A DNA stretch of 64,000 nucleotides from Bacteroidales bacterium. Lineage in GTDB: Bacteria; Bacteroidota; Bacteroidia; Bacteroidales; F082. The translations under genes were made by a program, and so were the position numbers. Positions within the stretch are counted from its first letter, which is position 1, and the number at the start of each line of letters is the position of its first letter. Positions 5,432 to 12,695 of this stretch are shown here, in pieces. Location of the stretch: positions 25,266-89,265 of the forward strand of contig JAFGXS010000034.1 in the NCBI GenBank assembly GCA_016936505.1, in the 5' to 3' direction. The notes below the pieces were generated by a model. It made no database searches, had not been told where the DNA came from, and saw only the letters and a list, made by a program, of their open reading frames with translations.

Positions 5432-5450
5432 CAAAAAAAAGACTGGTAAC

Positions 5451-6071
5451 TTATTTTAAAACTTTATTATTTTGAACAATTTTCCCCTTTTTATCAAGCT
5501 CCATAACAACAGAAACTACATTACCCATATAATAACCTTTGATTATATTACCATAATCGTCAGCTAAAAGAATTTCTGCTATCATTTCATCTTTTGTGCC
5601 TGAAAGCACAGCCTCGCCGTTATTTATATCAAGAAAAGTGCCCTGTTCAGTATTACCATCATAATCAAAAAAAGCATTGCAACTATTAATTGTACCCGGC
5701 ATATCAACCGTAGCTGTACCGCTTTCTGTAACATAACGACCCGGAATAAACGAATCTGAGTTTTCCGAAGACAGCATTCCAGCAGAAAGCCCTGCGCCTT
5801 TACCCGTTGCGTCAATAAGAGTATCATCTTTTATAGTTACATCAATACCCGGGGAAAGAAACAACAGACCCGAATAGTAAACCGTATCCTGATTCTGATT
5901 AACTGCGGAACCAATTTTCAAATAAAAGCATTGCGACAGTTCGTATATTCTCCCTTGATATGAAAGATAGTTTTGAAGTGTTTCGTCTACAGGATCGTTG
6001 TCTATTTTGCAACCGGAAAAAATAAGACCTATGAATATTAAAAGAATAAGGGATGTGATTAAACGTTTCAT
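5451..6071 (-). CDS. Hypothetical lipoprotein
   Basis: Lipobox LIFSGC after a hydrophobic signal; beta-rich mature part. Confidence 0.7.
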   Translation of the reverse strand: MKRLITSLILLIFIGLIFSGCKIDNDPVDETLQNYLSYQGRIYELSQCFYLKIGSAVNQNQDTVYYSGLLFLSPGIDVTIKDDTLIDATGKGAGLSAGMLSSENSDSFIPGRYVTESGTATVDMPGTINSCNAFFDYDGNTEQGTFLDINNGEAVLSGTKDEMIAEILLADDYGNIIKGYYMGNVVSVVMELDKKGKIVQNNKVLK

Positions 6072-6090
6072 TTAAAATATTCTTTGCCGG

Positions 6091-6738
6091 TTAGAATCGA
6101 AAAGTTACTGGTAGTATTACTCCTAAAAAAGTAAAACTTGCACTCGAGCTTCCAGAATAAATTACACTAATCTTGGGGTTAATTCCTATCTTCCACACAT
6201 TAAGGTAAACACCCACAGAACTCATTGCTCCTAACCCTCCTGTTGCTTTTTTCTCATATATATCAGCATAAGGTTCGTAAAGATTATCAAAAACTCCAGT
6301 GTACTCCTTGAAAGAAAAAATACCAAGAGCAAACTCCGAGTTAAAACCTGCTATTTTCCAATTTGTTCTGGGTGAAATTCCAAAATACACACCACCTCCA
6401 TTCAAAATATATTCGCTCGAGTTGGTATTTCCTGAACTCCATGAAGTAGAGCTTATCCTATCATTTCCCTTTAACAATAATGCCCCAAAAAACAAGTCAA
6501 TACATTTGATTTTTGTTGGGAGTGAAAATTTCAGGTTTAACCCACTCATACTTGTAATGTTATTATCAGGAGCATTTTCAGCTTTATATCTAAAGTAGTT
6601 TTCGCCATTAAAAAAATTACTATAAAATGCATATCCTATTTCCATTTTAAGTTTAGTATTTATTGGCGTAAAAGTTTGTGCTAAAGCAACAAATGAGGTG
6701 CCAGCGAACAACAAAATAAAAACAATAAATCGTTTCAT
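6091..6738 (-). CDS. Putative outer-membrane beta-barrel protein
   Basis: Signal peptide, alternating amphipathic strands, C-terminal aromatic residue (TFRF). Confidence 0.65.
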   Translation of the reverse strand: MKRFIVFILLFAGTSFVALAQTFTPINTKLKMEIGYAFYSNFFNGENYFRYKAENAPDNNITSMSGLNLKFSLPTKIKCIDLFFGALLLKGNDRISSTSWSSGNTNSSEYILNGGGVYFGISPRTNWKIAGFNSEFALGIFSFKEYTGVFDNLYEPYADIYEKKATGGLGAMSSVGVYLNVWKIGINPKISVIYSGSSSASFTFLGVILPVTFRF

Positions 6739-6858
6739 AACATTTGGTTTTTAAAATCTTTAATTATAAATAATTTAATGGAAACCTCTCCAGAATGAGA
6801 TTACTGAAAGGTTACCACGCCGAATTAATGTCAAAATGGTTTATACCAAACCTCTATT

Positions 6859-7460
6859 TTAAGGAATAATACCAAATTGTAGCCCTATAGTTGACACCCC
6901 TTCATCAAATAAATCATGAACCCCGGCACTAATTCCAACATAATATTTTTTAAAATGATAATTATAATACAACTTAACAGACATAGATTGCCTTACACCA
7001 TTCTTCGAAATAACTCCTATAAATTCGTCAGAATTATTTTCATTTCTATAATTGTAGTAATTATCTGAGTACACACTGAAACCATAACCGGTACCAATTC
7101 CGAAGTCTATTAATGAAACCCTTTGATTATTAAATAAATAAGCGGTTTTACTATGAGATACAATTCAAATAAACCAGCCATGTCATTGCCGTGAGCTTTA
7201 TCTGTATTAACTATGTATTGTTCCCCTTGCATACTATTCCAATAATACTCTATTGGTTTGTTCTTAAGGTTAGACACAAAAGTAAAATTTGGTGATACTT
7301 CAATTCCTTTAATGATCGGCATGCCTACATTAAAAGAAAAATAATAACCGTCAACAGGATTTCCATAACCGGCAAAACCGACACTGGCATTAACAGATAA
7401 GTTCTGAGCATAAAATACGCTTGGAAAGAATAAGAATAGTAATAACAATTGTTTTTTCAT
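6859..7460 (-). pseudogene. Outer-membrane beta-barrel gene broken by a single frameshift near 7135-7142
   Basis: ORF 7460-7110 and ORF 7074-6859 join if one base is restored (span 602 nt = 3n-1), giving ...KPL?LFNNQRVSLIDFGIGTGYGFSVYSDNYY...LQFGIIP. Confidence 0.7.
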
Positions 7461-7574
7461 TGAAATTAATATTTAAATTACTAATTTATTTTATTATAAA
7501 AATTTGAGATCATCCATTCCACGGCTTAGAAATTTTATTATAAAATGTGAAATGGATGATTTCTTTTTATATTT

Positions 7575-7913
7575 CTATGGATAACAAGATTGGTTGTTAT
7601 CGACGGTTGATATTGTCATTTTAAAACCATAATTACCAAACTCTACCACTGTTGTCTCCGGATCATAATATCTTAAATAACCCATACCAATATTATCATC
7701 TCCTGAGTGAAGCAAACTTTTTATAGTAACCGAAACACTCCCATCAACACTAAAACCTGTACTATCAATATTTTTCTGTTTATATGCTGCATTAAGAGTT
7801 ACATCAACATTCGGGAACCTATCCCACTCAATAACTTTCATTGTCAAAACTTCATCCCAATCGGAAGGTTGCCAATTACCTCCTTTCTTTGTTTTGTAGA
7901 TTATTATTTGCAT
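7575..7913 (-). CDS. Hypothetical protein, possibly the C-terminal fragment of a larger secreted protein
   Basis: 112-aa ORF whose first ~15 codons lie inside the direct repeat; the rest is polar and beta-rich (MKVIEWD...DDNIGMG). Confidence 0.45.
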   Translation of the reverse strand: MQIIIYKTKKGGNWQPSDWDEVLTMKVIEWDRFPNVDVTLNAAYKQKNIDSTGFSVDGSVSVTIKSLLHSGDDNIGMGYLRYYDPETTVVEFGNYGFKMTISTVDNNQSCYP

Positions 7914-8075
7914 GGTAATTTCATTTCATTGAGGGGAGGTTTTTCCCCTGTTATTTTTAAAAAAAAATCCTTTGAAAATTAAATTGTGTCTTTTAGGATT
8001 TTCAGTTTGCTAATTGTTTCACAACAAAGAAAAGAAAAAAAAAACGAAAATCTTAAAATTTCTTAAAATTTAAAT
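7869..8075. repeat. ~205-bp direct repeat, copy 1 (copy 2 at 12398-12603)
   Basis: Visual alignment; the block aaaaaaatcctttgaaaattaaattgtg-c-ttttaggattttcagtttgctaattgtttcaca is almost identical in both copies. Confidence 0.92.
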
Positions 8076-8347
8076 CCGGTCTAAATAGTCGTTCCTTATC
8101 AACCAAAATTCGGGCAAATTGTTTCTGATTTTGTAATATTTTTAAGAATTTCCTGAAGGAAAAATAAAGCCAAAGAAATTCTAGTTTTTAATTTCTTCAA
8201 ATCCCAACTATTGCGGCACGCATTGTTGCAAAAGAAAACGTAATGTTATGTATTTTTAAATCCTTCTTTGTGTTAGCTTCGACGGACAGGAAAAGTATGG
8301 TTTAATTCCTCGGAGTTCTACTCTAAAAAAATGAGTTCAGGAGTTCT

Positions 8348-9589
8348 CTATGGTTTAATACCATTTATTTTAACCTTATACGGTTTAAAAAATGACTTAT
8401 CTAATAATTTAATCAATACTTTTAAAACTAAAAATATCACAACAAGGGGAAGAATTAAAGATTCTATAAGTATAATATTTATATTATGATATCTTCCCTC
8501 AAGTATGGCTAACAAAATCGTTTTGATGTTAGCAGGAATCTGTTTGAATAATTCAACGTTCCACACCAGCATATATGAAATAAAAGCTATTGTAAATAGT
8601 AAGTTGAAAACATAATATAATACAAAAGCAATCTGTTGAATTTTACATTGAATTCTCTCTTTAAAAATACATTGAATAAAAAAAAGTGTTTCTTTTTGGG
8701 CTTTTTGTTTTAAATCTGTGATATTTAAAAAATCAGAAAGCAACCAGTATCCATCCATTTTAATAAATGGATTTAGATTAAGAACTCCTATTATAAAAGA
8801 AAAAAATGCAGCAATTAAAAAATCATTGTGGGCTGAGATAAAGAAAATAAATAAGTAAAAGCAAGAAATAATAAACTGGAAATATAATCCGCCAAAATCA
8901 ACAACCATCCGTTTTTTATTGTTTAGCTTCCAACTATCCGTAACATCTGCAAATAAAACTGGGGCAAATAAATATAATCCTATTCCAATTTTGCGCGGTA
9001 CTTCTTCAAAATAGTATAAAGCTGATGCATGTCCAAATTCATGCAGGAAGAAAACAAGGATTAACAATATTGTAACTAAAATGGAACTAAAGTTATTTAT
9101 TCCTGTCAATGTTGGCCTTGTATTCAGAAAGTGAACGCTACTCCATAATAAAACGAATAAGCTAAATAATAAGGATATAATAACAACTTTCCGGTGGAAC
9201 AGAAAAGCTAAGTATTTGCTAATAAAAATGACACTTTTTTCAGGAATAATAGTAAAACTTAAGTTAATATAACTCTTCTTCTTTTTTGTTTTACTTTCTT
9301 CAGTTTCTATAACTCCTTTAGAATACAATGTTACATAGAATAGCTCATGAATTTTTTCTACATTACTGTTGTTTACTGATAGTCCGGCTTTTTCACATAT
9401 TTGTTTTATTGTATTCATCCCCGTGGCTAACTCCAGAAAGTGAACCACATATTCACTAACAATTAAAGGGTTACTTGAATCTTTGTTGTTGATATAATAC
9501 CTCCCATCTGGCAGCTTTTCCCAGTATGTGTTTTTACGTAATTTGGGGGTTTTATGAATAACTTCAACCTGATTAGTTTTGTTTTTCAT
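8348..9589 (-). CDS. RRE(PqqD-like)-fused site-2 (M50) zinc metalloprotease, YydH-like
   Basis: N-terminal ~100 aa with three short strands plus a helical segment (FLELATGMNTIKQI), then a TM domain with LHEFGHA (HExxH) and NLNPFIKMDGY (NxxPxxxxDG). Confidence 0.85.
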   Translation of the reverse strand: MKNKTNQVEVIHKTPKLRKNTYWEKLPDGRYYINNKDSSNPLIVSEYVVHFLELATGMNTIKQICEKAGLSVNNSNVEKIHELFYVTLYSKGVIETEESKTKKKKSYINLSFTIIPEKSVIFISKYLAFLFHRKVVIISLLFSLFVLLWSSVHFLNTRPTLTGINNFSSILVTILLILVFFLHEFGHASALYYFEEVPRKIGIGLYLFAPVLFADVTDSWKLNNKKRMVVDFGGLYFQFIISCFYLFIFFISAHNDFLIAAFFSFIIGVLNLNPFIKMDGYWLLSDFLNITDLKQKAQKETLFFIQCIFKERIQCKIQQIAFVLYYVFNLLFTIAFISYMLVWNVELFKQIPANIKTILLAILEGRYHNINIILIESLILPLVVIFLVLKVLIKLLDKSFFKPYKVKINGIKP

Positions 9590-9591
9590 AT

Positions 9592-10592
9592 TTAAAGTTC
9601 AACATATTTTACATATGTTTTGTAGTCCTTTTTTTGAATTTTATACGTGAGATATTGTTTCTTGTCAAAGACAAAATAGTCTTTACCCAGGCAAAATGGA
9701 GAATATCTAAAGGCATTGAATTTAATGTTTGCTTTATTTAAAAAACAGTCTTCTCCGTTTTTATAATTTTCAAAATTCAGGTTTTCAGTATCGAGCCATT
9801 TATGTATGCCTTCTAATGTATCCCATTTGGATATATCTATTTTTTTCAACAATTCTTCCAGGTCTGAGAAAATCTCAATGATTAGTTTTTTAGCGAATGA
9901 ATTTCTGTCAGAATGGCTAATATTATTGTGCTTAAAGGTGTTAAAAGTGAAATTTTCATCATAAACAGAGCAATCCCTAAAGGGGTTGTTTTAATAATAT
10001 GACTCAAGTATGAAATTCCCTGATGTAAGAAGACGGTTTGAGAAAAAAAAGAGGAAGGGACAAGATTCTTAGGGTTTTTATCAACACCAGAATTCCCATC
10101 AATAAAAACTAATACCTTATTCCCATTCGCGATATCCGATTTAAGTTTCCATATAACGTTCTTTTCCCGACTTGATATAAACCGCAATTTTTGTTTTGAT
10201 TATTTAGAGCCCTTTAAATACTTGTTTAATGAAATAAATAATTCAGATTGTTGACTTTTTATTCGACCTTCCATTAAAATTGTAATGTTATACCCAAGTT
10301 GACTTAATAAAACGGGCAACATTCTATACTCTCCGATACAATATGAATAAATTATGGCTGATTTATCAATTTCATCTATAATTGAGTTGTTGGGCAATAT
10401 TGCATTTAAATATTCAATAGAATTTAGAAAACGATAGTAACTTTCCTCTTTGTAGGAAAGGTAGCGATAAAGGACTTTTCTATGTTCATCTAACGAATCA
10501 TTGCCAAAGAAATGTATCATATTGGCACTAATCTTTGCATAAAGAAATTCAATATTTCCTTTGTAGAGTCTATTTCTTGTCAAATAATTCAT
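9592..10592 (-). pseudogene. LpxL/HtrB-like (lipid A-type) acyltransferase split into three ORFs
   Basis: ORFs 10592-10200 and 10187-9882 are in one frame separated only by TAA 10202-10200; a frameshift after ~9995 links to ORF 9852-9592. Motifs IIYSYCIGEYRMLPVLLSQLGY, LKSDIANGNKVLVFIDGNSG, FFSQTVFLHQGISYLSH, LEELLKK...WDTLEGIHKW follow the LpxL layout. Confidence 0.72.
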
Positions 10593-11652
10593 TTGCGTTT
10601 AAATAAATTAAACCATCAGGGATGTGAGGGGTCTCAATTGCTTTAACCGAAACGTCATAAGTGTTATTTGATAATACTTGTTTCTTTTTAGTTCTATTAA
10701 ATAACATGTTTATACTACCTTCTGAAAATTTGTATCCTTTAATGCCTTCTACGTATGATACACTGACTTCATATCCTTCCAAGTTCGTATAAATAATACC
10801 CATTGATTTTTGTGTTGCTGCTATCCATTTGTTTATTTCCCCTATTTTATAGGTGATATAGGTTATGGCATAATCGTTCTTCCCGATTAGCATATAACCT
10901 GAAATGTTATTGTATTTCTTCTTACGAATAAATGATATTTTGTAAACATCATTTCCCTGATATTTTGTCATTCCATCGTAATGAAAATCAAACTTTTTAA
11001 ACAAACGGATAGGGGCATGATTTTGAACAAAAATGACTGAATAAAATCCACTTGGTGATATTTCATTACCATAATCATAAAAAGAATCATTTATCAAGTC
11101 GTTCTTGATTTCATATTTAGCAGCTAATAAATGATTTTCATCTTTCGTTAAAGCTACTTTTCCTTTGAAATCAGCAATCTTGCTATTTGGACTATCCAGG
11201 AAAATGAAACTCACATTTAGGGCCAGTGTATCACCCTGTAGGGATGGATAGTTTTTACTTATGTTTTCAATTGCTTTCTGTACAATATTGCCGGCATTTG
11301 GAAAGATTATGGTAACTTCAGAAAGTTCAAATATTTTTGGACTTAATAAGACTTTAGCAGGATGATTTGACATAGAAGGAGTAAGACTGATTACTTTACC
11401 AGCATATCCAACATGAGATATGTAGGCATCTTTTTGGTGCGTAATTAAAGTGCTGTCGGGAAAAATAATCTGGCACATTCCATTTCTATCCGAAACTGAA
11501 AGATACTTTTTCTCGTTTGTGTATATATAAACGTTCTCAATTGGTTTGTTGGTTAATGAATCTAGAATTTGAAGATTAATTGTTTGGGCTACGGTAAATG
11601 TTGGAAGAATAAACAACATCTTGAAAAGGATAACAGCTAATAATTTTTTCAT
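10570..11652 (-). CDS. Secreted protein with an N-terminal carboxypeptidase-regulatory-like domain
   Basis: Signal peptide from ATG 11652; ILDSLTNKPIENVYI...SDRNG...ISHVGY...LSEVTI is the Bacteroidota CarboxypepD_reg pattern. Confidence 0.75.
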   Translation of the reverse strand: MKKLLAVILFKMLFILPTFTVAQTINLQILDSLTNKPIENVYIYTNEKKYLSVSDRNGMCQIIFPDSTLITHQKDAYISHVGYAGKVISLTPSMSNHPAKVLLSPKIFELSEVTIIFPNAGNIVQKAIENISKNYPSLQGDTLALNVSFIFLDSPNSKIADFKGKVALTKDENHLLAAKYEIKNDLINDSFYDYGNEISPSGFYSVIFVQNHAPIRLFKKFDFHYDGMTKYQGNDVYKISFIRKKKYNNISGYMLIGKNDYAITYITYKIGEINKWIAATQKSMGIIYTNLEGYEVSVSYVEGIKGYKFSEGSINMLFNRTKKKQVLSNNTYDVSVKAIETPHIPDGLIYLNANELFDKK

Positions 11653-11802
11653 CGGTTTATAAATTTTGCCATCGGTAAAATGTGCTAAAAGTTTCTGCAA
11701 ATTCAGAAACTTTTATGAATCTGTAATAGTCATTCACATGGGTGCTTTTTTGACTAAATAAATTCATGCTTTCTTATTTCAAATAATTTAATTATTGATA
11801 AA

Positions 11803-11832
11803 AATCAGAGCAGGTCGAAACCTGCTCTGATT
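11803..11832 (-). terminator. Intrinsic terminator / stabilising hairpin after the 49-aa ORF
   Basis: Perfect 13-bp stem AATCAGAGCAGGT/ACCTGCTCTGATT with a 4-nt loop, followed by a short U tract on the minus strand. Confidence 0.85.
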
Positions 11833-11850
11833 AAACTGTTGTTACGAAAA

Positions 11851-12000
11851 TCAACCGTTGGGAACATCCAGCAAAACACCATCTCCTCGTCTCCAAAGAA
11901 CAAGCATTTCTTTCCGTTCTTCCAGTTCTTCAACTTTTACTGCTTTTGAATCAAATTGCAATTCTTTTACATCGTTTGATTCTAATTTAAAATTTTCCAT
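11851..12000 (-). CDS. Putative RiPP precursor peptide, 49 aa: MENFKLESNDVKELQFDSKAVKVEELEERKEMLVLWRRGDGVLLDVPNG
   Basis: Below the ORF-track cutoff. ATG preceded by an A/T-rich initiation region; acidic leader-like N-terminus, distinct C-terminal core; followed by a terminator; upstream of an RRE-protease. Confidence 0.7.
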   Translation of the reverse strand: MENFKLESNDVKELQFDSKAVKVEELEERKEMLVLWRRGDGVLLDVPNG

Positions 12001-12397
12001 TTTAAATTAATTTTTTAAATTATACCTACTTCTGATTTAAGGTCTCTTCGGTAAATTCTGACCATGTCTAGACATTTTCTTCTGAAACATTTCTGACTCA
12101 ATTTTTAATTCCGAAAAAGTCGGTGGACTTTGTCATCTTCCCTTTCGTCTTTTATATTGCCCATTACTTTCTTATGAAAGAACTGTTATTTTCCATTTTT
12201 CTCTTTTTGAAAAAAATAGAATTGTTTCAGGTATCAATGGTGAGCCTTCTATTTTCGACAATCTTGGTAGTTGTTTTCATAAAATTTAATGTGTTAAATA
12301 AATTGTACAATCGCATAAGGTTTATTTAGCTGCTTTGTCCAATTTCTGAAACAACACATCATCAATGGGCTGTCAGGAAAAGAATTTTTTAGTATGT

Positions 12398-12603
12398 TTG
12401 CCGACTACCTCCTTTCTTTGTTTTACAGGTTATTACTCGCATGATAATTTTATCTCATTGAGGGGAGGTTTTTATCTCCCATATTTTTATAAAAAAATCC
12501 TTTGAAAATTAAATTGTGCCTTTTAGGATTTTCAGTTTGCTAATTGTTTCACATCAAAGAAACAAAAAAAAACGAAAATCTTAAGATTTCTTAAAATTTA
12601 AAT
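12398..12603. repeat. ~205-bp direct repeat, copy 2 (copy 1 at 7869-8075)
   Basis: Visual alignment from ttgcc-a-t-acctcctttctttgtttt to ttcttaaaatttaaat. Confidence 0.92.
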
Positions 12604-12695
12604 TGAATATAAATTACAGTAAACATGTTTAACCACTTATAATATCAACATTGTAAGTAAAATAATTCCCCCTAAAAATGTGTTAATTTTGCCCC

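Follow-up and report, generated by a model that had tools for sequence, protein, structure and literature searches.

A 49-residue peptide that heads a conserved operon in Bacteroidota is a likely precursor of a RiPP-type pathway

A short open reading frame on the minus strand of a Bacteroidales contig encodes a 49-residue peptide, termed P0001, which is most readily understood as the precursor peptide of an undescribed RiPP-type pathway of Bacteroidota. We put the probability of this reading at roughly 0.7; modification and leader removal are inferred, and there are no expression, mass-spectrometry or binding data. The reading frame itself is a genuine coding gene, and it heads a conserved operon that also encodes a secreted protein, a protein with a predicted acyltransferase-like fold and an intramembrane M50 protease with an RRE-like domain. 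The peptide and its operon are without a Pfam or NCBIfam family, and together with related loci they define a leader motif associated with an RRE-M50 protease. All coordinates refer to the window, that is, the whole stretch of 64,000 nucleotides that was analysed.

The peptide gene and its operon

The following features make up the peptide gene and the operon.

11851-12000, minus strand: gene of the 49-residue precursor-type peptide P0001, ATG start, TGA stop at 11851-11853
11905-12000, minus strand: putative leader, approximately residues 1-32, with a motif common to other RRE-M50-linked peptides
11854-11904, minus strand: putative core, approximately residues 33-49
10570-11652, minus strand: 360-residue secreted protein P0022 with a Sec signal peptide
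9592-10592, minus strand: disrupted gene for a 333-residue protein with a predicted LpxM/PatA-like (LPLAT) fold
8348-9589, minus strand: 413-residue intramembrane M50 metalloprotease with an N-terminal RRE-like domain

The reading frame translates into the 49 residues MENFKLESNDVKELQFDSKAVKVEELEERKEMLVLWRRGDGVLLDVPNG, identical to the peptide quoted by an earlier sequence-only reading of the window. That reading had also claimed a tail free of Cys, Ser and Thr, which holds for the last 17 residues. The core, in all likelihood about LVLWRRGDGVLLDVPNG with the exact cut site inferred, lacks Lys as well and is thus free of Ser, Thr, Cys and Lys. As for the further claim that the gene had been missed by the open reading frame track, gene callers have annotated homologues of P0001 in several public metagenomes. 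The peptide contains no transmembrane segment, and neither P0001 nor 11 aligned relatives matched any Pfam or NCBIfam family.

The operon is compact, with four tightly packed genes in about 3.7 kb, and runs on the minus strand in the order peptide, 360-residue protein, 333-residue protein and M50 protease. The gene of the 333-residue protein overlaps that of the 360-residue protein by 23 nt, and the protease gene begins 2 nt after the stop codon of the 333-residue protein. Contigs L011-L017 from metagenomes have an identical four-gene order; L011 is JGI Ga0259481_10038281, and L013, which is the same as L024, comes from a Paludibacter sp. MAG (JACDZH010000152). A distant branch (L018-L022) keeps this order with a 333-residue protein that is just 42% identical, and its operon is extended by an ABC ATPase and an ABC-2 permease. 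The gene of the 360-residue protein always follows the peptide gene in the loci compared. Neither a sigma factor nor a transcription factor was detected in the operon by Pfam and NCBIfam.

Conservation of the peptide family

The P0001 reading frame is beyond chance because it has homologues, is under purifying selection and lies in conserved synteny. A word-indexed search of 5.8 billion proteins returned 10 further short proteins that are 74-92% identical to P0001, and an exhaustive search of 1.84 billion cluster representatives with the P0001 profile gave 13 matches, all but one of them peptides of 38-72 residues (12 of 13). Overall, about 20 short homologues are present in metagenomes; no peptide homologue was found in any of 60 genomes of close relatives.

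The family shares a block of about 30 residues, F16-D45, with the pattern F-D/N-S-x-x-x-x-x-E/K-E/K-L/F/I-E-E-R-K/N-E-M-L/I-V-L/I-W-R-R-G-D/E-G-x-F/L-P-D, and varies in the N-terminus ahead of the Phe and in the last 0-15 residues, the C-terminal residue being G, A, E, R, K, N, S, D or Y. Over the 30-codon block in seven loci, dN/dS ranged from 0 to 0.24 at dS values from 0.12 to saturation, and codon changes fell on positions 3 and 1, hardly ever on position 2. The codon-position bias and the low dN/dS therefore indicate selection on the frame and strand of P0001.

Inside the P0001 family, conservation of the core equals that of the leader, with LVLWRRG-D/E-G-x-F/L-P-D retained; this is atypical for antimicrobial RiPPs and counts against the RiPP reading. 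The core differs only between families, and the expectation of a variable core accordingly failed within the family of P0001 itself and held only between families.

The partner proteins

The 413-residue protease matches the NCBIfam model daptide_HExxH (NF041824) over residues 24-351 with an E-value of 6e-37, at 127.6 bits against an equivalog cut-off of 300, and the YydH/LiaK model (NF058609) with an E-value of 4e-14, below the curated cut-off. The homology to DapP spans most of the protein, including the RRE region, and that to YydH is weaker. The protease is thus a homologue of DapP but not an equivalog. Its HEFGH (183-187) and NLNPFxKMDG (D279) motifs are intact and are invariant in six family members. 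Its N-terminal 100 residues can be aligned with the stretch of the DapP model that includes the RRE, with no match to Pfam PqqD. In DapP/MpaP, an N-terminal RRE is joined to an intramembrane site-2 protease, and this fusion protein removes the daptide leader with its conserved ELExMEAP motif (PMC10036551); M50 proteases also serve as leader peptidases of epipeptides (YydH/EpeP) (PMC10885120).

The 360-residue protein P0022 has an N-terminal transthyretin-like CarboxypepD_reg domain (PF13715, 9e-5, below the cut-off), and its C-terminal part is predicted to form an open beta-barrel resembling LolA, RseB and LppX (AF2 model, pLDDT 81). The best Foldseek matches were the LolA-superfamily structure 3buu (E 1e-5), RseB 2p4b (7e-5) and the CPD transthyretin domain 5aq0 (8e-4), and the barrel also matched LolA and LppX. 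The matches to 3buu and 2p4b have a probability of 1.0 with TM values of only 0.24-0.33 and an rmsd above 10 Å.

The 333-residue protein belongs to a tiny family, represented by 10 clusters among 5.8 billion proteins and by two loci in 185,579 species genomes; intact homologues are P0012-P0021. Neither Pfam (PF03279 and PF01553 included), NCBIfam nor PDB sequences gave a match by hmmsearch. An AF2 model built from 8 sequences (pLDDT 71) was matched by Foldseek to LpxM 5kn7 (E 5e-5, probability 1.0, TM 0.48-0.50), followed by PatA 5f2t (4e-3). Comparison by hhalign with 13 LpxL sequences from relatives aligned only a DQ...FLGQ...G block of 41-43 columns at a sub-significant E of 0.04-0.11. The catalytic His of HX4(D/E) is not visible in the family, and an invariant S-Y-C-I-G-E-Y-R was placed by eye at the equivalent strand-to-helix position. 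The LPLAT fold, with a seemingly replaced catalytic His, is hence a model prediction without a significant sequence profile. The genome encodes a separate bona fide LpxL elsewhere.

A leader motif beside RRE-M50 genes

The alignment of the M50 protease was searched against 400 Bacteroidota genomes, and relatives were found in 22, counting the genome of the window itself. Ten RRE-M50 loci, among them L083-L091, were fetched for inspection of their neighbourhood. Nine of these contained one to three small open reading frames beside the RRE-M50 gene with the motif x-EELE-E/Q/N-R-x-E-M/L/F, as shown below with a slash after the motif.

L083: ...VEELEERLEL / AEAAPWICVGYVDC...
L084: ...VEELENRLEM / ASISASEIE...
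L085: ...VEELEQRLEM / AKWKNESNYACTSGDC...
L087: ...VEELEERVEF / GKWSAEAE...
L088 and L090: ...EELEERIEF / ...
L091, in three tandem copies: ...VVKLEERLEM / VQ...

Similarity to P0001 stops directly after the motif, and the cores in the other loci are unrelated and mostly Cys-rich. Their neighbours include radical SAM/SPASM maturases, squalene-hopene-cyclase-like proteins and proteins with CarboxypepD_reg domains. Ten precursors of these related clusters gave no NCBIfam or Pfam match. The strict pattern E-[ED]-[LFI]-[ED]-x-R-x-E-[MLF] occurs once in a six-frame translation of the 3.04-Mb genome, namely in P0001, and seven times across the fetched RRE-M50 loci, which amount to about 100 kb.

A common leader ahead of variable cores and beside differing tailoring enzymes is the usual hallmark of a leader recognized by a common processing protein. 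The sequence-only reading had placed the end of the leader at ...VEELEERKEM with the core following it, and this division is supported by the occurrence of the motif beside homologous RRE-M50 genes elsewhere. Its proposal that EELEER is the RRE recognition motif is likewise supported by comparison, with the binding itself inferred, and of the conserved EELEER that it expected next to M50 genes of other genomes, the form x-EELE-x-R-x-E-M/L/F was found in at least nine other Bacteroidota genomes. Several precursor families have a Trp at +3 to +6, and the true cut site could thus lie a few residues downstream of M32.

The hairpin after the stop codon and the upstream region

Two non-coding features flank the peptide gene.

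11798-11832, minus strand: perfect 13-bp stem, UUCG loop and then a U-run (U-run included; stem-loop at 11803-11832)
12001-12165, minus strand: non-coding region upstream of the gene, whose nucleotide sequence is conserved in L011, L012 and L014

The arms AAUCAGAGCAGGU-UUCG-ACCUGCUCUGAUU form 13 perfect pairs and are followed by UUUAU. The spacer between the stop codon and the hairpin is 18 nt, so that the stem begins at the 19th nt, in agreement with the perfect 13-bp hairpin that had been claimed 19 nt after the stop. The RNA has a folding energy of -23.3 kcal/mol compared with -9.8 ± 2.7 kcal/mol for shuffled sequences (z = -5.0), and none of 200 shuffles equalled it. A simple terminator scan missed this hairpin at 11803-11832; the fold is unambiguous nonetheless. 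In all six relatives (6/6), the peptide gene is likewise followed by such a hairpin, at 5 to 24 nt from the stop codon. At the two most distant loci, L019 and L022, the stem is GCUGGUCG/CGACCAGC in place of AGAGCAGG/CCUGCUCU, and the structure is kept. Hairpins also follow six of nine precursors in the related RRE-M50 clusters.

With a GC-containing stem-loop, a U-tract and a conserved position, the hairpin fulfils the criteria of an intrinsic terminator. Located between the precursor and the enzyme genes, it probably serves either as a leaky terminator or as a 3' stabilizer, a role inferred from its terminator-like structure. Such a hairpin would raise the level of precursor mRNA above that of the enzyme mRNA. 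A hairpin-based ratio of precursor to enzyme mRNA is established for the structural genes of lantibiotics.

The strong terminator-like hairpin downstream of the stop codon in all relatives could also be taken to suggest that P0001 is a regulatory leader or ribosome-arrest peptide, whose translation would control read-through of the terminator into the operon. The conserved block of about 30 residues with variable ends would fit the ribosomal exit tunnel in length, and its W...RRG...P is reminiscent of the arrest motifs of SecM and TnaC. However, there is no constant geometry between a stall site and the hairpin, given spacers of 5-24 nt and C-terminal tails of 0-15 residues, and no alternative antiterminator pairing was found. 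Moreover, this explanation leaves unexplained the RRE of the protease and the common leader with variable cores elsewhere. We therefore regard it as very unlikely, and a RiPP-type precursor remains the preferred reading.

The upstream region at 12001-12165 contains a hairpin GGTC...GACC and the block AGTAGGTATAA, and might represent a promoter or a 5' leader. No conserved open reading frame was found in it by alignment with L011, L012 and L014. An Rfam scan of the flanks of the peptide gene gave nothing near any gathering score, and no exact match to the Bacteroidetes -7 promoter motif TAnnTTTG was found upstream of the peptide in any locus.

The state of the locus in this genome

The operon lies in an island with a duplicated element.

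5432-12695, no strand: 7.2-kb island between patatin-like and DUF3109 genes
7869-8075 and 12398-12603, no strand: copies 1 and 2 of a direct repeat of about 205 bp, 89% mean column identity

The island holds the P0001 cluster and a second run of small genes resembling those of outer membrane proteins and lipoproteins, and each repeat copy heads one of the two minus-strand gene runs. Copy 2 keeps a truncated duplicate of the start of a 112-residue open reading frame. In 12 of 15 congeners, the patatin-like and DUF3109 genes lie on the same contig about 50-120 nt apart, and neither the peptide gene nor the gene for the 112-residue protein was found in the relatives. The island reading frames of 206, 215, 116 and 112 residues are placed outside the system because no counterpart was found beside the cluster elsewhere.

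The gene of the 333-residue protein carries two lesions relative to the intact copy in L011, with which it is otherwise 85% identical at the nucleotide level: TTA has become the nonsense codon TAA at 10200-10202 (TTA>TAA), and near 9964 a T4 run is shortened by one T, a 1-nt deletion. Both lesions may be real or may be assembly errors, and we can say no more than that the pathway is perhaps impaired in this genome. Independent decay is also apparent elsewhere. L027 has the peptide with a broken gene of the 360-residue protein and a stand-alone RRE; L028-L030 have a split gene of the 360-residue protein and no peptide; L031-L033 retain remnants of the peptide, KMIVIWIPKDSLFP, and of the gene of the 333-residue protein; and the 103-kb contig of P0006 carries only the peptide and the gene of the 360-residue protein. 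The peptide is thus retained on contigs where the genes of the 333-residue protein and the protease are lost or broken. This persistence could mean a role independent of the enzymes or merely a slower decay owing to the shortness of the gene.

Such observations raise the possibility that the locus is a decaying, non-functional remnant, in which the reading frame remains intact only through its shortness and yields no product. The nonsense codon and the frameshift in the gene of the 333-residue protein speak for it, as does the independent decay in L027, L028-L033 and the P0006 contig. Against it, the genes for the peptide, the 360-residue protein and the protease are intact with all catalytic residues present, and the two lesions are single-base changes in a MAG, one of them in a homopolymer, for which an assembly error is possible. 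We consider this explanation unlikely, and in any case it bears on present activity and not on the identity of the gene.

Proposed pathway

In the RiPP reading, the cytoplasmic RRE of the intramembrane protease would bind the leader F16-M32, and the protease would cut at M32 or a few residues after it (near M32/L33), freeing a core of about LVLWRRGDGVLLDVPNG; both steps are inferred. The LPLAT-fold protein would acylate the peptide, which is speculative. The new N-terminal alpha-amine would be the most plausible acyl acceptor, given that Ser, Thr, Cys and Lys are all missing from the core. The absence of a usual acyl-acceptor side chain from the core is at the same time a counter-point to lipidation. 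In the periplasm, the lipidated product would be protected or carried by the secreted LolA-like protein, and the ABC transporter would export this product where one is encoded. Acylation, LolA-like handling in the periplasm and ABC export, taken together, are a speculative possibility, as lipidation is deduced from predicted folds only.

Alternatively, P0001 may be an unmodified small protein with a regulatory or signalling function, a soluble substrate or adaptor of regulated proteolysis by the M50 site-2 protease together with an RseB-like sensor of lipids in the periplasm. Its cleavage would report the state of the envelope or its lipids, and the substrate of the LpxM-like protein would be a lipid and not the peptide. 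The 360-residue protein has RseB as its second-best structural match, and in E. coli RseB acts together with the M50 protease RseP. LpxM-like enzymes usually acylate lipids, the peptide core is conserved as in signalling molecules, and the peptide outlasts the decaying enzymes. However, the peptide has no transmembrane segment, and the operon has no sigma or transcription factor. The protease is of the DapP/YydH type of RiPP systems with an RRE, not of the RseP type with PDZ domains. Furthermore, the same leader precedes Cys-rich cores beside radical SAM/SPASM maturases, which follows RiPP logic. A regulatory role thus appears unlikely, and we retain the precursor of a RiPP-type pathway as the preferred interpretation.

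A bolder, tentative reading would extend this interpretation to a phylum-wide RiPP platform of Bacteroidota, in which the leader 'EELEERxEM' and an RRE-fused M50 protease serve several chemistries. P0001 would then represent a Cys-free branch lipidated by a His-less enzyme of LpxM/PatA fold with a dedicated LolA-like periplasmic carrier. If true, this would constitute a ribosomal lipopeptide route without Lgt/Lsp/Lnt, GNAT enzymes or PKS/FAS hybrids. Acylation of the peptide by the LPLAT-fold protein, should it truly occur, would mean a new ribosomal lipopeptide route and would add an activity to those of the lipid A acyltransferase fold. Its small size and the intact copies available in public contigs make the system directly accessible to heterologous expression.

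Comparison with known systems

Within the literature searched, no description was found of the system as a whole, of the leader motif, of a RiPP cluster with an LPLAT-type enzyme or of the L083-L091 clusters. The closest known systems are compared here one by one.

Daptides (MpaA/DapA with DapP/MpaP; Ren et al., 2023, PMC10036551) likewise combine a short precursor with an adjoining RRE-M50 intramembrane protease, and their ABC transporter has a counterpart in the distant relatives of the locus. If cleavage follows M32, the acidic leader of P0001 has E-L-E at -8 to -6, comparable to E(-8)L(-7)D(-6) of MpaA (PMC10036551). In contrast, the invariant C-terminal Thr of daptides is absent from the P0001 family, and across the operon and the 7 kb flanking it on each side, Pfam and NCBIfam detected no DapB (DUF-RRE), oxidative decarboxylase, aminotransferase or methyltransferase. 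The partners here are instead an LPLAT-fold protein and a secreted LolA-like protein, and the hosts are Bacteroidota, whereas those of daptides are Actinomycetota or Bacillota. The resemblance to daptides suggested by the sequence-only reading was partly upheld, through the protease (NF041824, 6e-37, below the cut-off) and not through the peptide.

The epipeptide system YydFGHIJ/EpeXEPAB of Bacillus subtilis also has a 49-residue precursor and an M50 intramembrane protease, and its ABC transporter finds a parallel in the distant branch. However, no radical SAM gene corresponding to the epipeptide epimerase was found in the P0001 operon by Pfam and NCBIfam, and the NCBIfam model of YydH, with 246 positions, lacks the RRE fusion, whereas the protease of the P0001 cluster has an RRE-like domain. 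A direct resemblance of the peptide to YydF had also been proposed (VKNLEF versus VKELQF), and this claim failed in profile comparison: hhalign aligned 8 columns with an E of 0.17, using a YydF sequence entered by hand. The VKELQF segment is moreover not conserved in the wider P0001 family, and the analogy was dropped.

LpxL/LpxM and the mycobacterial PatA share with the 333-residue protein the predicted fold and a local DQ...FFG...G-like block. Unlike these enzymes, the 333-residue protein shows no HX4(D/E) His, and its gene lies in a peptide operon and not in a lipid A synthesis context. The lipidated macrocyclic peptides described in PMC13056109 use a lipobox Cys with Lgt/Lsp/Lnt and are a different system from the P0001 cluster. 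A lasso peptide, considered on account of the Asp/Glu at core position 8, was dropped in the absence of an Asn-synthetase-like cyclase and a transglutaminase-like protease.

The other RRE-M50 clusters of Bacteroidota (L083-L091) have a homologous protease, scoring 110-217 bits against the M50 profile of the P0001 cluster, and share the leader motif, often a hairpin after the precursor and often secreted CarboxypepD_reg proteins nearby. They differ in their Cys-rich cores and in their radical SAM/SPASM and squalene-hopene-cyclase-like alpha/alpha-toroid proteins, whereas the P0001 cluster is Cys-free and has the LPLAT-fold protein. Taken together, the P0001 cluster resembles the logic of daptides and epipeptides, with a precursor, an RRE/M50 leader peptidase and, in some loci, an ABC transporter, and belongs to neither.

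Genomic island and region upstream of the peptide gene

The peptide operon lies in a 7.2-kb insertion (window 5432-12695) that separates a patatin-like gene on one side from a DUF3109 gene on the other; in 12 of 15 congeners these two genes are direct neighbours. The island also holds a second gene run, all of it unannotated.

Second gene run of the island (window 5432-12695)
112-aa ORF
116- and 71-aa OMP-like pieces
215-aa OMP-like ORF
206-aa lipoprotein

At the head of each run stands one of the two copies of a direct repeat, each about 205 bp long (window 7869-8075 and 12398-12603; 89% identical). In the upstream copy, the beginning of the 112-aa ORF persists as a truncated duplicate (MRVITCKTKKGGSRQTY*). 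The repeat at the head of both runs, together with this truncated duplicate, suggests that a promoter region was duplicated when the peptide operon was inserted.

The non-coding region 5' of the peptide gene (window 12001-12165, minus strand) was conserved at the nucleotide level with three contigs having the same four-gene order (L011, L012, and L014), even though synonymous sites within the peptide gene had diverged. This region includes a GGTC...GACC hairpin, and a block, AGTAGGTATAA, is located about 20 nt 5' of the peptide ATG. Neither an Rfam match nor a conserved ORF was found in window 12001-12165 (minus strand).

Interrupted and decayed genes

The LPLAT-like gene (window 9592-10592, minus strand) is interrupted twice: a TTA>TAA change lies at 10200-10202, and a T4 run at about 9964 has lost 1 nt. 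These interruptions could represent either real pseudogenisation or assembly errors of the MAG, and we favour neither.

A degenerate version of the cluster was observed on a 200-kb contig from a different lineage (L027:5926-7830). There the peptide (57 aa) is intact, the 360-aa gene is in fragments, the 333-aa gene is absent, and an RRE-like ORF of 112 aa stands alone, lacking the protease domain.

Separately, the search with the peptide profile retrieved the 991-aa protein P0053, seven distinct stretches of which match the N-terminal part of the profile (E 8e-10). This protein may be a repeat protein built from K/E-rich units.

Related clusters in other Bacteroidota

Small ORFs adjoining homologous RRE-M50 protease genes in other Bacteroidota (loci L083-L091) share the leader motif x-EELE-x-R-x-E-M/L/F, with unrelated cores that are Cys-rich in most. 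None of them matched an NCBIfam precursor family.

Small ORFs with the leader motif beside RRE-M50 genes
L083:8523-8708, minus
L084:7543-7710, minus
L085:8217-8360, minus
L086:5712-5918, minus
L087:4801-4989, plus
L088:3824-3979, minus
L089:5365-5547, minus
L090:3711-3887 and 6222-6452, both minus, two ORFs
L091:4224-4822, plus, three tandem copies

In these clusters, the protease is accompanied by 578-736-aa proteins with a weak squalene-hopene-cyclase-like alpha/alpha-toroid domain and by radical SAM/SPASM peptide maturases.

Partner proteins
Alpha/alpha-toroid proteins: L083:5209-7419; L084:5232-7232; L085:4885-6621; L087:1682-3571
Radical SAM/SPASM maturases: L083:8861-10252; L084:2604-4070; L089:5594-7219

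Because every score of these partner proteins fell below the curated family cut-offs, the related clusters might represent further undescribed RiPP classes.
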